Shown in pieces: positions 12,208 through 45,343 of a DNA stretch of 64,000 bases. This DNA is from Sulfitobacter sp. (GTDB taxonomy: Bacteria > Pseudomonadota > Alphaproteobacteria > Rhodobacterales > Rhodobacteraceae). Each line of letters starts with the position of its first letter. Positions within the stretch are counted from its first letter, which is position 1. Position numbers and translations under genes: made by a program. The stretch spans positions 516 through 64,515 of the forward strand of contig JABDKA010000057.1 in the NCBI GenBank assembly GCA_013002405.1, written 5' to 3'. Under the pieces are notes generated by a model. The model saw only the letters and a program-made list of their open reading frames with translations. It did not search any database and was not told the DNA's origin.

Positions 12208-13896
12208 TCAGGCGGACCCCCGGTCCAGTTGAGAGAGCTGCCGCGAGAGGTTGTTGGCCTTCAGGACAGCGAGTGTCGCCAGGGGCTCGCTGAGGCCCCG
12301 CAGCTCCAACGCGGTAAATTCATCGGCGGCCACATTCAGCCCTGCGGCAGCCAGCAGAGGGGCCGATATGAAAGCCTGGACCTTGTGTTCCTTGGTCACC
12401 CCTTCAAGGCGGGAAGCCGTGTTGACGGTATCGCCGATCAGGGTGCGCGGTGCCTGCCCGGCCGCGCCGATTTCCCCCAAAACGACATTGCCCAGATGGG
12501 CACCTATGCCGATGGCAACGGTCGGCTGGCCTTCGGCGGCGAGGGTTTCGTTGAAACTGTCGAGCGCCTGGGAAATCCCTTCCACCGCAGCGAGGGCCGC
12601 GCGGGCTGAGCTTTCGGGGCTGTTGGTCTCGAATACTGCCAGAAAACCGTCACCGAGGTACTTGTCGACCGTCCCTCCGTTTGCAGTGACGGCGGGCACG
12701 ACAGCATCGAAGAAACGGTTCAGCAGGAAAACGACGTCGTAGGGCAGCTGCCCCGTTGTACGTGCCGTAAAGCCGCGCATGTCGAGGAATAGAACAGCCA
12801 GCTCCTTTTCCTGTCCCTGGCTGGCATGACCCCGGTCGCGACGGCCATCGGGGCGGAAAACGCGGAAGACGGTGGCCGGACTGTTGGGCCGGATCTGGCA
12901 GGCCAGCCGGGTGTTGGGGCCCGCATTGACCGCCGCAAGGGTGCGCGCCTCGGCCTCGCTTGGTGGATGCAGCAGGTCCGCACCGTCCTCAATTACAACG
13001 CGGCAGGTGGTGCAGCGCCCCCGCCCTCCGCAGAGGGAGGCATGGGGAACGTTGCGCACGCGTGACATCTCCAGCAGTGTCATGCCCTTGGGTGCTGTGA
13101 TGCGCGGCCCGTTCACGTAAGATATCTGGACCGATCGGCGGCGGGCGATGATAAAGCGCACCACGAGGATCAGAATGACTAGTCCAAGGACGACGCCAAA
13201 AACCCAGAGCACCAGGTCGCTGAGCGCGATGAGGGCGAGGAAGGTCTCACGGTCGGGAAAGTTGAAGACTTCGATCATCATCTGGGCCTGATCTGCATCG
13301 GCAAAAGCGGCCTTGATCCGCCGTCCCGCCACGAGAAATCCTGCCAGCGCAAATGCGGGCACCAGGACGGCAAGGCTCACCAGAACCAGTTGCCAGCGCC
13401 GCCACCAGGCCTTGCCCCGCAGCCAGAAGTGCAGACCGATGCAGCCGTGAACCCAGACGATCAGCAAAAGCGCGCTTTGTTTCCAGCCGTCGGCGGTGCC
13501 CCAGATCAGCAGCATGATATAGGCCATCGCATCATTGACGTCGTAAAGTTCATAAGCGGCGCGGGTGTGAGTAATGTGGGCCAAGAGCAGGGCCGGGATG
13601 GTGATGCCCAGGATGACCTGCGCGGCCTCCCAACGTGGCATGCGCAGGGTCCGCCGTCCTGCCAGCCGGGCCAGCGCAAGGCTGATGTGCACCGTGAAGG
13701 CACCGTAGATGATCAGGGTACCGATCAGACTGCGTGTGAATAGCTTTCGCAGGTCCTGCGTGGCGTGCATCAGGTCATTGGAGAAAATGCCCAAGCCGAT
13801 ATTGAGGAAGTGCAGCAGCGCGTAGAGGAACAGGACAAGGCCACTGCCGATCCGCAAACGGGTTGCCCAACTGCCGCGCCACAGGTCTGTCATCAA
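12208..13896 (-). CDS. Membrane adenylate cyclase with His-containing TM domain and 2Fe-2S ferredoxin domain (CyaC-like)
   Basis: TM His residues (LLHFLN, TVHISL, LAHITH, WVHGCIGLH); CGGRGRCTTC..RLAC; cyclase motifs FLDMRGF, KYLGDG, IGDTVNTASRLE. Confidence 0.88.
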   Translation of the reverse strand: MMTDLWRGSWATRLRIGSGLVLFLYALLHFLNIGLGIFSNDLMHATQDLRKLFTRSLIGTLIIYGAFTVHISLALARLAGRRTLRMPRWEAAQVILGITIPALLLAHITHTRAAYELYDVNDAMAYIMLLIWGTADGWKQSALLLIVWVHGCIGLHFWLRGKAWWRRWQLVLVSLAVLVPAFALAGFLVAGRRIKAAFADADQAQMMIEVFNFPDRETFLALIALSDLVLWVFGVVLGLVILILVVRFIIARRRSVQISYVNGPRITAPKGMTLLEMSRVRNVPHASLCGGRGRCTTCRVVIEDGADLLHPPSEAEARTLAAVNAGPNTRLACQIRPNSPATVFRVFRPDGRRDRGHASQGQEKELAVLFLDMRGFTARTTGQLPYDVVFLLNRFFDAVVPAVTANGGTVDKYLGDGFLAVFETNSPESSARAALAAVEGISQALDSFNETLAAEGQPTVAIGIGAHLGNVVLGEIGAAGQAPRTLIGDTVNTASRLEGVTKEHKVQAFISAPLLAAAGLNVAADEFTALELRGLSEPLATLAVLKANNLSRQLSQLDRGSA

Positions 13897-39842: not shown

Positions 39843-40604
39843 ATGCCGCTCAAGATCGCCTTTACCGCCAGCCGGGCCACCGTCGCCCAGACCGCGCGTG
39901 CGGCCCTGATCGGGCGGTACGGTGACGTGCCAATGGAAGAGGCGGACGTGATCGTGGCCCTGGGTGGCGATGGTTTCATGCTCCAGACCCTGCATGATAC
40001 CCAGGAACTGGCCGCGCCGGTCTACGGCATGAACCGGGGCACCATCGGATTTTTGATGAACGCCTACGGGGAAAGCGATCTGGTGGAACGGCTGGAGGCG
40101 GCGGAGCGGGCTGTGATCAACCCGTTGATCATGCGTGCCACGCACGTGAATGGGACGGTGTCCGAGGCCTTGGCGATCAATGAGGTCTCCTTGCTGCGCG
40201 CGGGACCCCAGGCGGCCAAGCTGCAGATAACCGTGGACGGACGGCTGCGCATGCAGGAACTGGTCTGCGACGGAGCGCTCTTGGCAACGCCCGCGGGCTC
40301 CACCGCCTACAACTATTCCGCCCATGGGCCGATCCTGCCCATCGGGGCCGAGGTGCTGGCGCTTACCGCGATGGCGGCCTTCCGGCCCCGGCGCTGGCGC
40401 GGGGCGCTTTTGCCGATCACCGCCAAGGTGCGCTTTGATGTGCTGGAGCAGGACAAGCGGCCCGTGATGGCGGACGCCGATGGAACCAGCTACCGCGACG
40501 TTGTGTCAGTAGAGATCGAGTCAGAGCCGAGCGTGGAGCACACGATCCTTTTCGATCCGGGTCACGGGCTGGAAGAGCGGCTGATTTCGGAGCAATTCAA
40601 CTGA
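39843..40604 (+). CDS. nadK: NAD kinase
   Basis: [27 protein letters not shown]. Confidence 0.95.
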
Positions 40605-40632
40605 ATGCGACGTCGCCGTCGCTCAAACCATA

Positions 40633-40706
40633 GCCCCGGACCTGCTCCGGGGTGTTTCCTGTGGTGGATAGCGCCCAGCCAGGAGGTCCCGGATCCGGTC
40701 CGGGAC
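40633..40706. repeat. Double-hairpin palindromic intergenic element (CCGGATCAAGTCCGG-like family)
   Basis: GCCCCGGACCTGCTCCGGGGT ... GAGGTCCCGGATCCGGTCCGGGAC between convergent genes. Confidence 0.65.
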
Positions 40707-40730
40707 TGCGGGGTTAAGGTGCCATCCGGA

Positions 40731-41288
40731 TCAGCTCTCTGGCGCCATATAGCGAAGCGCGATCTGCGCCGCACTTGCCGCATCCAGCACCGGTGGGATC
40801 AGGGTCAGCACATCACCCGAACCGTCCAACAGATAGATGAGCGATCCATGGGTGAAGACGGGGCCGTACTTCGGATCCTCGTAGGCCAGCGCATGGTCGA
40901 CCGAAAAGGCGGCGTAGGCGGTGGCCAGGGCTTCCTTGGAACCAGTCAGGCCAATGAAAGCGGGATGGTGCTCAGCTAGCGGCGCCTGCATCGTCCCCAC
41001 CCGGTCCCTTTCGGGATCGACCGTGATCATCACCGGGCGCAGGTCATGCCCCGCTTCCGCCACCAGATCGGTGACATCGGCCATCAGTGGCAAGGCGGCG
41101 CTGCAGATGCCGGGACAGTTGGCATAGCCGAAGAAAAGCAACTGCGGCTGCCCATCGGGGTCTGCTTCGGTTCGCATCTCACCGTTCTGGTCGGTCAGGG
41201 CAAAGGGCCCGCCCACGTCAAAGGGTAGGGGCGACTGAGCCAGCAACGGCCCGGCCAGCAGACCGAGGATCAGGGTGAGGCGCTTCAT
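40731..41288 (-). CDS. SCO1/SenC family copper chaperone
   Basis: GGPFALTDQNG, FFGYANCPGIC (CxxxC), ITVDPERD, THGS. Confidence 0.92.
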   Translation of the reverse strand: MKRLTLILGLLAGPLLAQSPLPFDVGGPFALTDQNGEMRTEADPDGQPQLLFFGYANCPGICSAALPLMADVTDLVAEAGHDLRPVMITVDPERDRVGTMQAPLAEHHPAFIGLTGSKEALATAYAAFSVDHALAYEDPKYGPVFTHGSLIYLLDGSGDVLTLIPPVLDAASAAQIALRYMAPES

Positions 41289-41851
41289 TCGAAGAGATAC
41301 TCTTTGAATTCACGGTCGATCTCCAAGCCAAGGCCGAGATAGCCGTGTTTCTCGATCTCTGCGAGGATGCGCGGATCGCGGCGGAACCAGGGGCCTTTGC
41401 CCTTGGCATTGGGGTTCTCCCTGGCCCAGACCTTGGTGAACTGGCTGGCCTTGCTCCAGTCGCCACCATCCGTCTTGACCCGTTGGACCAGATAGATGTT
41501 GCGCGCTCCGATCTCGGGATCGTCGATCATCAGACCGTCCACTGTCACGCTCAGCCCGCAGTAAGGCAGCAGGTCTACAACCGCGCCGGTGAAGGCGGGT
41601 TGATTGTTCTTGGTGGCCATGACCAGCACACCGTCTGCGGCCCGCAACAGACCAAGCTGACGCTCGCCTCCCCCGCAATTCTCAGGGCAATCGCCCGTGA
41701 GTTCACACATCACGTCGACGACACGGGCTTCGAATGTCGCGGGCACCTCGGCATAGAGGTTCCAGGATCGGGCCTCTGACCCTTCCGAGAAATCCTGCGC
41801 GGCCAGGGGGGCGGCAATAAGGGCGATGGCGGTTGCGAGACGGGAAATCAT
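41285..41851 (-). CDS. Exported hypothetical protein with D-x-x-C and CxxxC motifs
   Basis: Signal peptide; VVDVMC..GDCPENCGGG..QLGLL..DG; overlaps both neighbours by 4 nt. Confidence 0.85.
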   Translation of the reverse strand: MISRLATAIALIAAPLAAQDFSEGSEARSWNLYAEVPATFEARVVDVMCELTGDCPENCGGGERQLGLLRAADGVLVMATKNNQPAFTGAVVDLLPYCGLSVTVDGLMIDDPEIGARNIYLVQRVKTDGGDWSKASQFTKVWARENPNAKGKGPWFRRDPRILAEIEKHGYLGLGLEIDREFKEYLFE

Positions 41852-42294
41852 TCCTTCGGCTCCGGGATCGCGAAGGAGGGGACTACATCATAATCCTCGT
41901 GGCTGAGATTGGTAATCCCCATGTCACTGACCACCCTCTCAACAACGATGTAATTGATCCCGTCACGGGCGTAGAACATACCCTCCGCCGTCACAGTGTG
42001 CGAGGCGAGCGTGAGTGCCGTATCCCCGCCAGTGGCATTGTCCTGCGGACCCAGATTGAGCACCGTGTAGACCGTGCCATCTTCGGTCAGAAGCCCGATT
42101 GGGATACCGCTGGCTGAACACCAGAGCGCGCAGGTGTGATGGGCCGATCCCACGACCGCATCGGGCCCCCCCATGACGCCAGAGTAATAACACCAGGTGT
42201 CGATGATCTCTCCGGTCACGGTGATCCGCTCCCCTTCGCTGGCCCAGGCGGGCAGCGCTGTCAGGGCCGCGAGTGTTGCCAATAGTCGTTTCAT
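41848..42294 (-). CDS. Exported hypothetical protein with D-x-x-C and HHxCxxxC motifs
   Basis: Signal peptide; GEIIDTWCY..AHHTCALWCSASGIPIGLL.EDG; GGAGG SD. Confidence 0.85.
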   Translation of the reverse strand: MKRLLATLAALTALPAWASEGERITVTGEIIDTWCYYSGVMGGPDAVVGSAHHTCALWCSASGIPIGLLTEDGTVYTVLNLGPQDNATGGDTALTLASHTVTAEGMFYARDGINYIVVERVVSDMGITNLSHEDYDVVPSFAIPEPKE

Positions 42295-42333
42295 GGGTTC
42301 GCACCTCCAATCAGGCTCGGGAGAAGCCTAGGG

Positions 42334-42354
42334 TTGCCGCTTAGGTTGCGGCAA
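42334..42354. promoter_or_regulatory. Perfect dyad, candidate operator of the SCO operon
   Basis: TTGCCGC-N7-GCGGCAA overlapping a minus-strand TTGCCG-N18-TAGGCT. Confidence 0.4.
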
Positions 42355-42385
42355 ATCACTTTTCCGGGTGGGAGCAGATTTTTGC

Positions 42386-42410
42386 GGAACTTCTGACCGA
42401 CACGACCGTT
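42386..42410 (+). promoter_or_regulatory. EcfG (general stress response sigma) promoter
   Basis: GGAAC-N16-CGTT upstream of the csbD-like gene. Confidence 0.7.
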
Positions 42411-42475
42411 TAGCCGGTGACAGAGTGTCGTGCCTCCTGCGCGACGCGAGGAACGCAAACACAAGGAGTTCGAAA

Positions 42476-42676
42476 ATGAATTGGGACAAGATCAAGGGCA
42501 ACTGGAATCAGCTTACCGGTGACGTGAAGCAAAAGTGGGGTGAACTGACCGACGATGACGTTCAGCAGGCCGAAGGCAACCGTGATGAACTGGTCGGCAA
42601 GATTCAGGAACGCTATGGGATCGCCAAGGACAAGGCGGAAAAACAGGTGGACGAGTTTTTCGCCAATCACGGCTGA
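42476..42676 (+). CDS. CsbD family stress protein
   Basis: NWDKIKGNWNQL.G..KQKWGELTDDD. Confidence 0.92.
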   Translation: MNWDKIKGNWNQLTGDVKQKWGELTDDDVQQAEGNRDELVGKIQERYGIAKDKAEKQVDEFFANHG

Positions 42677-42736: not shown

Positions 42737-43975
42737 TCAATCCAGCGTGAAAAGCTCGTACCGGTCCGTCACTCCGCGCATGCGGTATTGACCCAAGGAA
42801 ACGAGATCCGGCCGGTCTTCAAGCAGCGGCTTTGCCACGTGGGATGAGATCACGATGGTCTGATCGACCGCACCGCACATGCCCAAAATACGCGCGGTGG
42901 TGTTCACGGCGGGGCCGATCACTGTAAAGTCGAGCCGGGTGCGCCCGCCGATGTTGCCATAGTGGACGTCGCCCGCGTGCAGGGCCAGGGTGAAACCGGT
43001 GGATGGCAGATCTGCCGCCTTCCTTTCGGTTTCGAGTATCTTGAAGGCCTCCCGCAACTCGACCACCGCTGCCACCGCCACGGCTCGGGCGTCGGGTATT
43101 TCGTCCAGGTCGAAGATTGCCAACATCCCGTCACCCATGAACTTCAGGACGTTCCCGCCGTTCTGTTCGACGATCTCGACCGCGACGCCGAAACAGGCAT
43201 TCAACATGTCGATGATCTGGGGCCCCGGCAGTGTCTCCGACAGCTTGGTGAAGCCGCGCAGATCGAAGTACCAGATGACGGCTCTCTTCGTCTCGGAAGA
43301 GCCGCGCATGATGTCCCCCGACAGCACCCGGCGCGAGGCGTCGCGGCCCAGATAGGCGGCAGTAATATCCTCTGCCATCATGCGATTTGCACCGCTTTTC
43401 AGCGTCAGGCTGATCGGAGACATGAGGCCGCGCAGCCCTTCCAATTGCACTTCGGTGAAGCCACCGGGTGCGTCTGTGCAGAGGGAAATTGTTAGCCCCT
43501 CTTCAAGCCTCATCGGGTTCGAAGGGGAATTCTGATCTTTTCGCAGAAAATACCGTTTAGCCGCGTAATAGTCCGTATAGCCGAGCGCGCGCAGTTCATC
43601 GAAGATGGGGAAATTGAGCTCTGGATCGGGCACATCAAGCCGCTGACTGAAATCAGAGACCGGGCTTGCCATGAGATAGAAGAGGGGGCTCTTGCGATAC
43701 TCCTCTGATTCATCCGTGTTGTTCCGGTTGTATTCGAAATTTTCATTCTCTTCGTCGCGTTTCCACCGGAAGGCGAGCGCTCCGATCTCCGGATGATGGG
43801 CGCGCATGGTGAGGTTCACACGGGTGAGCTGAAAGCCCGCGTCGATCAGTCGGAAACAGAAGTCTTCAAGCCAGTCGTTAACGGGCGTGTTTTCCAAACC
43901 CTGCTGGATCAGCCAGTTGGACAGATCAGCCAGCTTGGCCGTCATTTCGAAGTTGTCGATTGTCGGGGCAGCCAT
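42737..43975 (-). CDS. Soluble class III adenylate/guanylate cyclase with GAF-like N-terminal domain
   Basis: FDLRGFT, KFMGDG, GNIG..RLDFTVIGPAVN..AR. Confidence 0.88.
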   Translation of the reverse strand: MAAPTIDNFEMTAKLADLSNWLIQQGLENTPVNDWLEDFCFRLIDAGFQLTRVNLTMRAHHPEIGALAFRWKRDEENENFEYNRNNTDESEEYRKSPLFYLMASPVSDFSQRLDVPDPELNFPIFDELRALGYTDYYAAKRYFLRKDQNSPSNPMRLEEGLTISLCTDAPGGFTEVQLEGLRGLMSPISLTLKSGANRMMAEDITAAYLGRDASRRVLSGDIMRGSSETKRAVIWYFDLRGFTKLSETLPGPQIIDMLNACFGVAVEIVEQNGGNVLKFMGDGMLAIFDLDEIPDARAVAVAAVVELREAFKILETERKAADLPSTGFTLALHAGDVHYGNIGGRTRLDFTVIGPAVNTTARILGMCGAVDQTIVISSHVAKPLLEDRPDLVSLGQYRMRGVTDRYELFTLD

Positions 43976-44140
43976 GGGACACCTTCAATCTGTTTTGGCT
44001 TTCCGCAATTCTACGGTCTTCGGTGCAATTCGGACAGTTCTTTCGCGCTTGGCGCGCACATTGGCCGGGCAGCGCGCACTACCGTTGCCCAACAGATAGG
44101 CATGGTTCCCGTTCCTGTCACCCTTCGGGGCCGACCAAGC

Positions 44141-44181
44141 TTGATTTGCGTCAATCATTATTGCTTCGCTCCTTCTATGCT
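44141..44181 (+). promoter_or_regulatory. FNR/FixK-type class II promoter
   Basis: TTGAT-TTGC-GTCAA with -10 TATGCT at 44176-44181. Confidence 0.6.
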
Positions 44182-44218
44182 TCACCCAGATGGAAATCTG
44201 ATGTGCTGGAGATCTGAG

Positions 44219-45343
44219 ATGAACAGGATTTTGCTGACTGCCTTGATGCTCGTTTGCACCGCCGCAGGTGCAATCGCGCAGGAAAAGGAAAGCTACTTCG
44301 ATTTCGGCGGGGACAGCTTTCGCGCTGGGTCCACTGCCGTGCTGGATGTCGACGGTGTGGATGATCTCTTCATGGCAGGGGAAACGGTGCGGGTAGAAAA
44401 GCCCATTGCCGGGTCCGCGCATTTGGCCGGTCGCAAGGTTTTTGTGTCAGAGGCTGTCGGTGGAGATGCCTATGTGGCGGGAATGGAGCTTTCGATTGAC
44501 GGCGCGATCGCGGGGAACGCGACGGTGGCGGGCTATAGCGTCCGCCTTTCCGACGTGGGCGGTAATCTTAGGGTCACAGGAAGCTCCGTTGAGATTTCGG
44601 GCCCGGTGGCCGGATACGCCTTGATTGCTGCGGATGAGGTTGAGATTGATGCGGTTATTTCAGGTGATGTCAGCCTGACCGCGAGGGAAATCGACTTCGA
44701 CGATGGGGCGCGGATTGAAGGGACGCTGACCCTTTACGAGGAGAAGGGGAAAAGCCTTGAGGTCCCCACATCGATTGTGCCCGCCGACCGGGTTGAGCGA
44801 CGGCCGATTGCCGAATGGTCTGAGGTCGCGGAGGAATTCGAGGTCTGGAGCTGGCAACAGGCGATCTGGAAATTCGTCCGGGGAGTGATTCTGGTGGCGG
44901 CATTGGCCGCCCTCGTCGCGGTCTTCGTGCCCGACCGGCTTGCCAGTCTGCGGCGCAGCATCCTCGACCAGCCTTTCCGCAACCTCCTGTTCGGGTTCCT
45001 TGCCGTCTCGGCGCTGATCGGGTCGACCATCCTCCTGATGATGACGCTGGTTGGCCTGCTGCTGACCCCGCTGACGGTCCTGACCGCGCTCTTGAGCGCC
45101 TTTGCGGGCTACGTGGTCGGCGCTTACGCGGTAGGTGTGGGCCTGACCCTTCTGGCCGGGCGGCCTGAGCCGGACAGCATGGGCACCCGTGCCATCGCAG
45201 CGGCTATAGGTGCGCTGGCAGTTGCGGTGATCGGGCTGATCCCCTTCTTCGGCTGGCTCTTCGTTCTGGCCCTGTCGCTGTCGGGGGCGGGCGCCATCGC
45301 GGTCTGGCTGTTCCAGCCGCGGTTCTTCGCGCCCACCTACTGA
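44219..45343 (+). CDS. Exported beta-helix (bactofilin-like) repeat protein with C-terminal TM helices
   Basis: Signal peptide; about 17-aa repeats such as GDAYVAG, GNATVAG, GNLRVTG, GDVSLTA; several hydrophobic C-terminal helices. Confidence 0.75.
   Translation: MNRILLTALMLVCTAAGAIAQEKESYFDFGGDSFRAGSTAVLDVDGVDDLFMAGETVRVEKPIAGSAHLAGRKVFVSEAVGGDAYVAGMELSIDGAIAGNATVAGYSVRLSDVGGNLRVTGSSVEISGPVAGYALIAADEVEIDAVISGDVSLTAREIDFDDGARIEGTLTLYEEKGKSLEVPTSIVPADRVERRPIAEWSEVAEEFEVWSWQQAIWKFVRGVILVAALAALVAVFVPDRLASLRRSILDQPFRNLLFGFLAVSALIGSTILLMMTLVGLLLTPLTVLTALLSAFAGYVVGAYAVGVGLTLLAGRPEPDSMGTRAIAAAIGALAVAVIGLIPFFGWLFVLALSLSGAGAIAVWLFQPRFFAPTY

Follow-up and report, generated by a model that had tools for sequence, protein, structure and literature searches.

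An SCO-linked pair of predicted exported cysteine proteins in marine Rhodobacterales, a candidate copper or thiol-redox module from a large unnamed superfamily

We describe a chain of three genes in a 64,000-nucleotide stretch of a Sulfitobacter genome (contig JABDKA010000057.1, positions 516 to 64,515 of the forward strand; hereafter the window) that encodes two small cysteine-containing proteins, which we refer to as A and B, together with a protein of the SCO1/SenC family. The SCO family is best known for helping to assemble the CuA site of cytochrome oxidase, and to our knowledge its clients beyond oxidases are few and mostly inferred. The trio is found in hundreds of marine bacteria and probably represents a copper or thiol-redox module of a new sort. 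As judged from sequence profiles, A and B are genuine paralogues, though distant ones. The superfamily of A is large and unnamed, with no Pfam family, solved structure or literature, and B is a His-less, four-Cys derivative that we see only next to A-type genes.

Gene A (41848..42294, minus strand, 148 aa), gene B (41285..41851, minus strand, 188 aa) and the SCO gene (40731..41288, minus strand, 185 aa) are open reading frames (ORFs) arranged head to tail in that order, and at both the A/B and the B/SCO junction the start codon overlaps the preceding stop codon within the 4-nt sequence ATGA. A preliminary description, made from the DNA letters alone, had proposed just such an overlapping chain, and its coordinates are exact. 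It had also assigned signal peptides to all three products, and the N-termini do look like such signals: in each, a short basic stretch leads into a hydrophobic run and then a site resembling A-x-A, with small residues at -3 and -1 (AWA before S, LAA before Q and LLA before Q, for A, B and SCO respectively). Read from the sequence, these Sec-type N-termini are MKRLLATLAALTALPAWA preceding SE in A, MISRLATAIALIAAPLAA preceding QD in B and MKRLTLILGLLAGPLLA preceding QS in SCO, and all three proteins would be exported by way of Sec. A twin-arginine-like pattern occurs in 9 of 240 A and B orthologues, and the two proteins of the window begin MKR.. and MISR..; the Sec-type signals led us to reject a Tat-exported cofactor or Fe-S protein as an identity for A or B.

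Neither A nor B has any match in Pfam or NCBIfam, and comparison with the PDB by sequence, using the single sequences and three profiles, returned chance-level matches only, such as de novo trefoils, defensins and entry 8ehb. In line with their first description as unknowns, the two proteins belong to no characterised family. Their relatives are numerous (1932 clusters at 90% identity for A and 1366 for B), and every label among them is hypothetical; a look-up of the exact protein sequence of A found no record. The paralogy of A and B had been proposed by eye. A direct BLASTP comparison is not significant (E 0.28), yet it falls in the same register as the alignment by eye, and hhalign with shallow profiles of close orthologues gives 83% and E 8e-6. 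When the superfamily profile of A is aligned to the B family the values rise to 95.9% and E 5.8e-9 over 89 columns, again in exactly the proposed register, so the paralogy holds, although pairwise BLASTP by itself would have been insufficient. In this register C49, C55 and C59 of B pair with C35, C55 and C59 of A, the His-carrying loop of A is deleted in B, and the fourth cysteine of B, C98, aligns to the invariant A97 of A. This argues that B is a diverged paralogue of A that has lost the His and gained a fourth cysteine.

The core motif of A (42100..42210, minus strand) consists of E29, D32, W34, C35, M41, H52, H53, C55, W58, C59, G63 and P65. The His-His pair that had been noted ahead of the CxxxC in one of the paralogues is H52-H53, in the arrangement H52-H53-T-C55-x3-C59; H52 is invariant across the superfamily, and H53 is confined to the A-type clade, as are W34, M41 and W58. 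The A proteins that are partnered by B also conserve R23, D111 and Y115 together with a C-terminal tail (residues 124-148; 41851..41925, minus strand) with invariant H132 and P139, which is present in all of them. H99 of A is conserved in the Rhodobacterales only. In B the invariant residues are C49, C55, C59 and C98, and there is no conserved His or Met; B also carries a C-terminal extension of its own (approximately residues 138-188; 41285..41440, minus strand) with invariant W142, W155, G170, G173 and L174. This extension is found neither in A nor in a distant, single-copy type of the family that we recovered from 120 metagenomic loci with a hand-written degenerate DNA motif pattern, and the tail of A is likewise missing from that type. 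The number of cysteines in the mature proteins is nearly constant, at three in 120/120 A proteins, four in 119/120 B proteins and three in 40/46 of the distant type. The Cys residues of A and B, and the His of A, are invariant over a wide range of divergence.

A profile search of 1.84 billion representative sequences places A among 781 clusters (at 50% identity) with E<=1e-3, mostly exported proteins of about 125 aa. Among 150 representatives, essentially all that are full-length carry the pattern C-x(n)-H-x2-C-x3-C. In an alignment of 54 sequences with a mean identity of 22%, E29, C35, G49, H52, C55, C59 and G63 are invariant, and G28, D32, A56, P65 and G105 are nearly so. The superfamily can be summarized by the motif GE..D..C-x(n)-H-x2-CA-x2-C-x3-G-x-P on a predicted exported barrel of about 110 residues; A of the window has every invariant residue, and B keeps the three cysteines and the G-x-[PR] region without the His loop. 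A Pfam scan of every member of both alignments (the 54 superfamily sequences and 26 B proteins) found nothing except weak matches to DUF5818 (PF19135), seen in 11/54 superfamily members with a best E of 3.9e-5. We do not regard DUF5818 as the family of A, as A and B themselves have no match, one printed score was 14.4 against a gathering cut-off of 27 bits, and the model describes a fragment of 57 residues. DUF2147 (PF09917), a UniRef label on one B orthologue (P0222), was rejected as well, since 0/26 B proteins match it at E<=1, P0222 included. We found no functional papers on DUF5818 or DUF2231 (the latter appears below among the neighbours), and a literature search combining OB-fold, Sco and copper chaperone returned nothing resembling the A/B family. 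A search of PLSDB plasmids with A and one distant member found neither.

Two further observations concern the superfamily at large. In one 237-aa member (P0374) the family domain is fused at its C-terminal side to a pair of YHS domains (Pfam E 3.5e-14); YHS is a putative metal-binding module. At two metagenomic loci (L190:7800-9700 and L170:700-2850) the distant-type gene is present in three or four tandem copies, which shows that duplication comes easily to this fold, the A/B pair being another instance.

AlphaFold2 models of A and B are of moderate confidence (pLDDT 64 and 73 respectively) and share a common order of elements: strand 1, two or three short helices bearing the cysteines, strands 2-3, a loop or helix, and strands 4-5. 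In Foldseek comparison of either model with the PDB the top matches are all generic OB folds, none of them close (RPA14/32, the N-domains of Lys- and Asp-tRNA synthetases, SSB, YgiW and the C-domain of NlpE; E >=0.02, TM 0.25-0.4). The order of strands and helices fits an OB-fold, a closed barrel of five strands with a helix between strands 3 and 4, and we provisionally call A and B OB-fold-like. In the model of A, H52, C55 and C59 would lie on one helix at positions i, i+3 and i+7. The tail of A has pLDDT below 50 in the monomer model, and the extension of B is also modelled with low confidence. One of the chance-level PDB matches, 8ehb chain A (113 aa, 'Putative lipoprotein', E 0.14), has an H-x2-C-x3-C...IP segment that precedes a GEV.D segment, and on this pattern it could be a circular permutation of the A/B fold. 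It was not among the top 50 matches listed for either Foldseek search, and we did not find a paper describing the structure.

The third gene is a clear member of the SCO family, as had been recognized: residues 26-159 match PF02630 over profile positions 1-133 of 134 (E 6.5e-39), and the C58-PGI-C62 motif and H147 are in place. Its nearest relative of solved structure is Bradyrhizobium ScoI (4wbj, E 1e-22), to which both the C-x3-C and the His align, and there is also weak similarity to AhpC/Redoxin. Across 82 SCO proteins linked to A and B, C58 and C62 are conserved in 100% and H147 in 99%; the linked proteins therefore retain the Cys-Cys-His triad that binds copper and are likely, as far as sequence can tell, to be competent for it. 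The motif itself varies, being CxxIC[S/T] in the Rhodobacterales and CPDICP in a divergent alphaproteobacterial locus (L214), with CPDVCP in ScoI. Ruegeria pomeroyi, which has the same A-B-SCO trio (probably at about SPO2935-2937, downstream of prpE), encodes at least one other SCO, SPOA0270, beside mtoX, the gene for a Cu-dependent methanethiol oxidase (PMC5739008), so that members of this group have multiple SCO paralogues linked to different genes. Searches of the literature for the R. pomeroyi orthologue by accession (AAV96176/Q5LPB2) found no paper that mentions it, and of the locus tags SPO2931-2937 SPO2936 alone is listed, as 'hypothetical protein'.

A close A is present in 498 genomes of the GTDB species set, and the neighbourhood counts given here for the Rhodobacterales come from 80 loci fetched from among these. 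B directly follows A in all 80, and SCO follows B in 78, the two exceptions being contig ends. The junctions overlap by 4 or 1 nt at 61/70 loci for A/B and at 63/67 for B/SCO. The flanks of the trio vary (a PrpE-like gene at 38 loci, NAD kinase at 35 and CsbD at 21). In other Alphaproteobacteria A is 42-50% identical to that of the window and B is always next to it, so that B follows A at every A-type locus seen, as the proposed pairing would have it. The linkage to SCO is less uniform. It recurs in 3 of about 6 divergent alphaproteobacterial contexts (L210, L211 and L214/215), but it is missing from about half of the A-B lineages outside the Rhodobacterales (L081/082, L084/085/212/213 and L086/087); one more locus (L209) is truncated. 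At L210 and L211 the three proteins have diverged from those of the window to a similar degree (A 42-46%, B 39-45% and SCO 36-42% identity; the L214 SCO is 34% identical), which fits inheritance of the trio as a unit with later loss of adjacency in some lineages.

The surroundings of the distant single-copy type are different. Neither SCO nor B is present at any of the 120 loci (0/120 for each), which makes SCO an accessory of one clade and not the defining partner of the fold. The commonest neighbours are DUF2231 membrane proteins (9 loci), an unnamed cluster of four-transmembrane proteins that aligns to DUF2231 with an hhalign value of 92.9% (13 loci), and membrane-anchored dihaem cytochromes c (11 loci by clustering, and 7 by Pfam among 150 neighbours). 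Less frequent are ECF sigma factors (3-5 loci), DUF3347 (2-5), Redoxin or AhpC-TSA (2), CCP/MauG (1-3) and HMBD (1), and Met/His-rich neighbours are occasional. These contexts suggest that, in its ancestral role, the fold partnered membrane or haem redox proteins in the periplasm. At one locus, in a metagenome-assembled genome of the Acidobacteriota (L083:3048-10294), the distant-type gene has a TonB-dependent receptor gene on one side and, on the other, that of a membrane-anchored dihaem cytochrome c, followed by two unlabelled ORFs and then CcmE, CcmF and CcmH, a compact envelope redox cluster.

The model that we favour, tentatively, is that A and B form a periplasmic complex in which a Cys/His(/Met) site of A binds copper and is serviced by SCO. 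In this model the two translationally coupled paralogues, with their OB-fold-like beta-barrels, would act jointly in the periplasm as a heteromeric complex. Their obligate co-occurrence, their overlapping genes and the clade-specific terminal extensions, which have low confidence when modelled as monomers, are the reasons for thinking that they act together. A would provide the ligand-rich site, made up of the superfamily core C35, H52, C55 and C59, to which the A-type clade would add H53 and M41, the adjoining W34 and W58, and, from the C-terminal tail, H132; B, the His-less four-Cys derivative, would more probably be a structural partner. Copper at the site of A may be a redox centre or a cargo, and SCO would deliver it, keep the cysteines of A reduced, or both, in a step modelled on the action of SCO at the CxxxC-His-Met CuA site of cytochrome oxidase subunit II. 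We infer export, the formation of a heterodimer, the binding of copper and the direction of the SCO interaction. A site for a metal or for redox chemistry is suggested by the odd number of cysteines in A, which implies at least one unpaired thiol in an oxidizing compartment, together with the invariant His located three and seven residues before the helix cysteines. Copper is preferred because of the linkage to SCO, because the residues gained by the A-type clade include the typical Cu ligands Met and His as well as a Trp beside both cysteines, and because of hints of metal domains elsewhere in the superfamily (the single YHS fusion and the occasional HMBD, DUF3347 and Met/His-rich neighbours). 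Export through Sec and not Tat also favours it, as a cofactor would then be acquired in the periplasm, as copper is.

Several points weigh against this model. The structural models of A and B are of only moderate confidence (pLDDT 64 and 73). With four cysteines and no conserved His or Met, B would be as well explained by two structural disulfides as by a metal site; a CxxxC on a helix is a classic disulfide staple, and the chance-level PDB look-alikes of the profile include insect defensins. SCO is not adjacent in the three alphaproteobacterial contexts listed above and is missing, as is B, throughout the 120 distant-type loci, where the prevalence of DUF2231-like proteins and cytochromes c points to electron transfer generally and not to copper specifically. 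No Cu-responsive operator was recognized upstream of A, and no RNA runs were found to hold the sequence of this locus, which was seen in DNA metagenomes only. The copper or thiol-redox function put forward in the preliminary description is upheld in part: it is plausible and nothing contradicts it, and the paralogy, the constant pairing of A with B, the invariance of Cys and His, the linkage to SCO and the intact Cu triad all favour it, but SCO is not a universal partner.

Four other explanations have to be weighed against the same evidence. In one, A-B would be a periplasmic copper carrier comparable to PCuAC or CusF that passes Cu to or from SCO, the real targets of SCO being oxidases encoded elsewhere. 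A and B are small and appear to lack a catalytic domain, as metallochaperones do, SCO adjoins them with no client enzyme nearby, and where SCO is not adjacent (L081, L084 and L086 contexts) it could be encoded elsewhere; it is also established that PCuAC works with SCO in assembling CuA, and that CusF carries Cu(I) on an OB fold. However, the ligands of A are thiolate-rich compared with the Met/His sites of PCuAC and CusF, and the distant relatives adjoin cytochromes c and DUF2231-like proteins, with SCO or oxidase assembly genes at 0/120 loci, and we consider this relay unlikely. It is unlikely, too, that the module is free of metal altogether, with the unpaired cysteine of A, activated by H52, being redox-active or carrying a persulfide or sulfenate and SCO acting as a thiol:disulfide oxidoreductase. 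The disulfide-reductase activity of SCO proteins is documented, and the odd Cys count and invariant His of A, the thioredoxin-like fold of SCO with its weak AhpC/Redoxin similarity, and the Redoxin/AhpC-TSA neighbours at two distant-type loci would all be accommodated. Thiol chemistry alone would have no need of the Cu-triad His that 99% of the linked SCOs keep, though, and neither a CxxC motif nor a link to a membrane electron donor of the CcdA/DsbD type is seen; the Met and His gained by A-type proteins suit the binding of a metal better.

The cysteines could instead be purely structural, their disulfides stapling the inserted helix to the barrel of an OB-fold pair that binds some ligand or protein, in which case the adjacency of SCO would be inherited without any interaction. 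The four cysteines of a His-less B, the known use of helix CxxxC as a staple, and the absence of SCO from several A-B lineages and from the whole distant type are all as this would predict. But three cysteines cannot all pair, the His is invariant across ~780 clusters, and linkage to SCO through overlapping junctions persists down to 42% identity despite variable flanks, all of which makes a wholly structural role improbable in our estimation. Finally, the Cys3-His of A and the Cys4 of B are classic ligand sets for Zn or Fe, and distant members adjoin CCP/MauG, cytochrome c and DUF2231-like membrane proteins; a site for Zn, for Fe in the manner of rubredoxin, or for non-covalent haem, which would make A and B small periplasmic electron carriers or structural metal sites with SCO in a redox role only, is nevertheless very unlikely, given that export by Sec to an oxidizing periplasm disfavours Fe- and Zn-thiolate sites, that there is no CxxCH motif, and that copper is indicated by the linkage to SCO, by the fusion to YHS and by the neighbouring HMBD.

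By analogy with SCO-CuA, PCuAC-SCO and mtoX-SCO, the trio appears to be organized as an SCO with its client or an SCO with a co-chaperone. The likeness to the CuA system is in the ligands, as an SCO with C-x3-C and His is encoded together with a protein that itself bears C-x3-C, a conserved His and a Met, the vocabulary of the CuA site, which SCO metallates or reduces. However, the model of A is OB-like and not cupredoxin-like, its His precedes the CxxxC, it has a third invariant Cys, and no oxidase genes are nearby; a cupredoxin or CuA domain (Greek-key fold, C-x-E-x-C-x3-H-x2-M) was rejected for A, as there is no Pfam or PDB match and the resemblance stops at the spacing of C-x3-C and the content of His and Met. 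PCuAC (DUF461) is similarly a small exported protein often encoded next to SCO, but it folds as a Greek-key beta-sandwich, and its site, H(M)X10MX21HXM, lacks Cys, and PF04314 matches neither A nor B at E<=1, nor any of their 54 + 26 aligned relatives. CusF resembles A in being a small exported OB-type beta-barrel with Trp and Met near the putative site, but its site is His-Met-Met-Trp with no Cys and it is encoded with CusCBA; a CusF-type Cu(I) carrier was set aside for A and B because there is no Pfam match at E<=1 and CusF is not among the sequence or fold matches in the PDB. The BOF proteins (YgiW, 1nnx) are exported and likewise of unassigned function, and are linked to A and B by a weak Foldseek match; that match is at chance level (E 0.2), and BOF proteins lack the helix insertion with Cys and His. 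A c-type cytochrome was also excluded for A and B, both of which lack CxxCH, a motif present only in the neighbours of distant relatives. A precedent in organization is the mtoX-SCO1/senC-mauG cluster of roseobacters and Hyphomicrobium, in which an SCO paralogue is co-located with a non-oxidase Cu enzyme (PMC5739008). It resembles the present locus in that, within one group of bacteria, SCO is placed with a periplasmic protein other than an oxidase, but the A-B-SCO locus lacks SBP56/MtoX and MauG, and A and B are unrelated small proteins; for want of SBP56 and MauG at the locus a link to mtoX/MauG or methylamine systems was rejected.

A conserved element upstream of A has the layout of a sigma-70-type promoter and may well serve as one. 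In the window it comprises a GTGATTTGCC box with a -35-like TTGCC (42350..42359, minus strand) and a -10-like CTAGGCT (42325..42331, minus strand) 37 nt upstream of the A start codon, and a Shine-Dalgarno sequence GGAGG, read from the sequence, is located 9 nt before the ATG (42304..42308, minus strand). A match to CTAGGCT with <=2 mismatches occurs approximately 35 nt from the ATG in 45/81 orthologous upstream regions, across genera, and many of these loci keep the box about 17-19 nt upstream of it, the distance from GTGA to CTAGGCT having its peak at 26-28 nt. The common layout, at 45 of the 81 loci compared (L001-L080 and L208), is GTGAT(T)TGCC, N17-19, CCTAGGCT and about 35 nt to the ATG of A. 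Conservation is unusually strong in the GTGA box that immediately precedes the -35-like TTGCC. The spacer of the window also contains a perfect palindrome, TTGCCGC-N7-GCGGCAA (42334..42354, minus strand), between the divergent CsbD and A genes. It is not kept at orthologous loci, where the spacer sequence varies, and is thus specific to the window; other palindromes are present around the -10-like element at three loci (L001, L011 and L014). By eye we recognized no Fur, Irr, RirA, CueR or FnrL-like boxes upstream of A. At the other end a GC-rich hairpin, found by consensus scan only and a likely terminator, is situated between the SCO stop codon and the convergent NAD-kinase gene (40634..40652, minus strand).

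The genes around the trio encode SHMT, NAD kinase, CsbD, a class III cyclase and a PrpE-like acyl-CoA synthetase. The gene for the CsbD-like stress protein (42473-42676, plus strand, E 2e-22) diverges from A, an arrangement kept in 21/80 orthologous loci. No oxidase or known cuproenzyme was seen in the window, either on reading the called ORFs by eye or when ten unidentified ones were scanned against Pfam, as had been stated for the locus at the outset, and an Rfam scan of the whole window gave zero matches. Elsewhere in the window a 562-aa protein (12208-13896, minus strand) combines a hydrophobic N-terminal region, a Fer2 2Fe-2S ferredoxin domain (E 8e-8) and a class III adenylate/guanylate cyclase domain (E 2e-13), which by its predicted domains is an unusual redox-sensing cyclase architecture. 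An ORF of 516 aa without a Pfam match (43793-45343, plus strand) has a strongly hydrophobic C-terminal third; at the 5' end it runs into the cyclase gene of the opposite strand, so that the true start is probably at an internal MNRILLTALMLVCTAAGAIA signal-like segment. DNA nearly identical to positions 40600-42400 was found only in DNA metagenomes from beach sand and marine sediment, the best run holding 58% of the sampled words, so that the DNA would come from an uncultured Sulfitobacter-like roseobacter, and A of the window is 85% identical to A of S. aestuariivivens and of S. sediminilitoris.

While the SCO family is already known, an SCO-linked periplasmic Cys/His module from an undescribed superfamily would be new, as is the large superfamily itself, with its invariant Cys3-His site and no counterpart in Pfam, among solved structures or in the literature. 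The A-B pair is a concrete candidate for a new SCO partner, and one that is genetically tractable because Ruegeria pomeroyi DSS-3 carries the trio. Whether it proves to be a new copper centre, a copper carrier or a thiol-redox protein, any of these, if true, would fill a gap in how copper and electrons are handled in the envelope. A bolder proposal, to which we attach little likelihood, is that A is the prototype of a new, non-cupredoxin periplasmic copper-thiolate redox centre on an OB-fold barrel, assembled by SCO in alphaproteobacteria, in which C55, C59, H52/H53 and M41 would form a site like that of CuA or of type-1 or red copper proteins. The superfamily would then consist of small electron carriers, with DUF2231-type membrane proteins and dihaem cytochromes c as their docking partners, and, if this reading is true, at least 781 clusters of proteins would be previously unrecognized members of that class.

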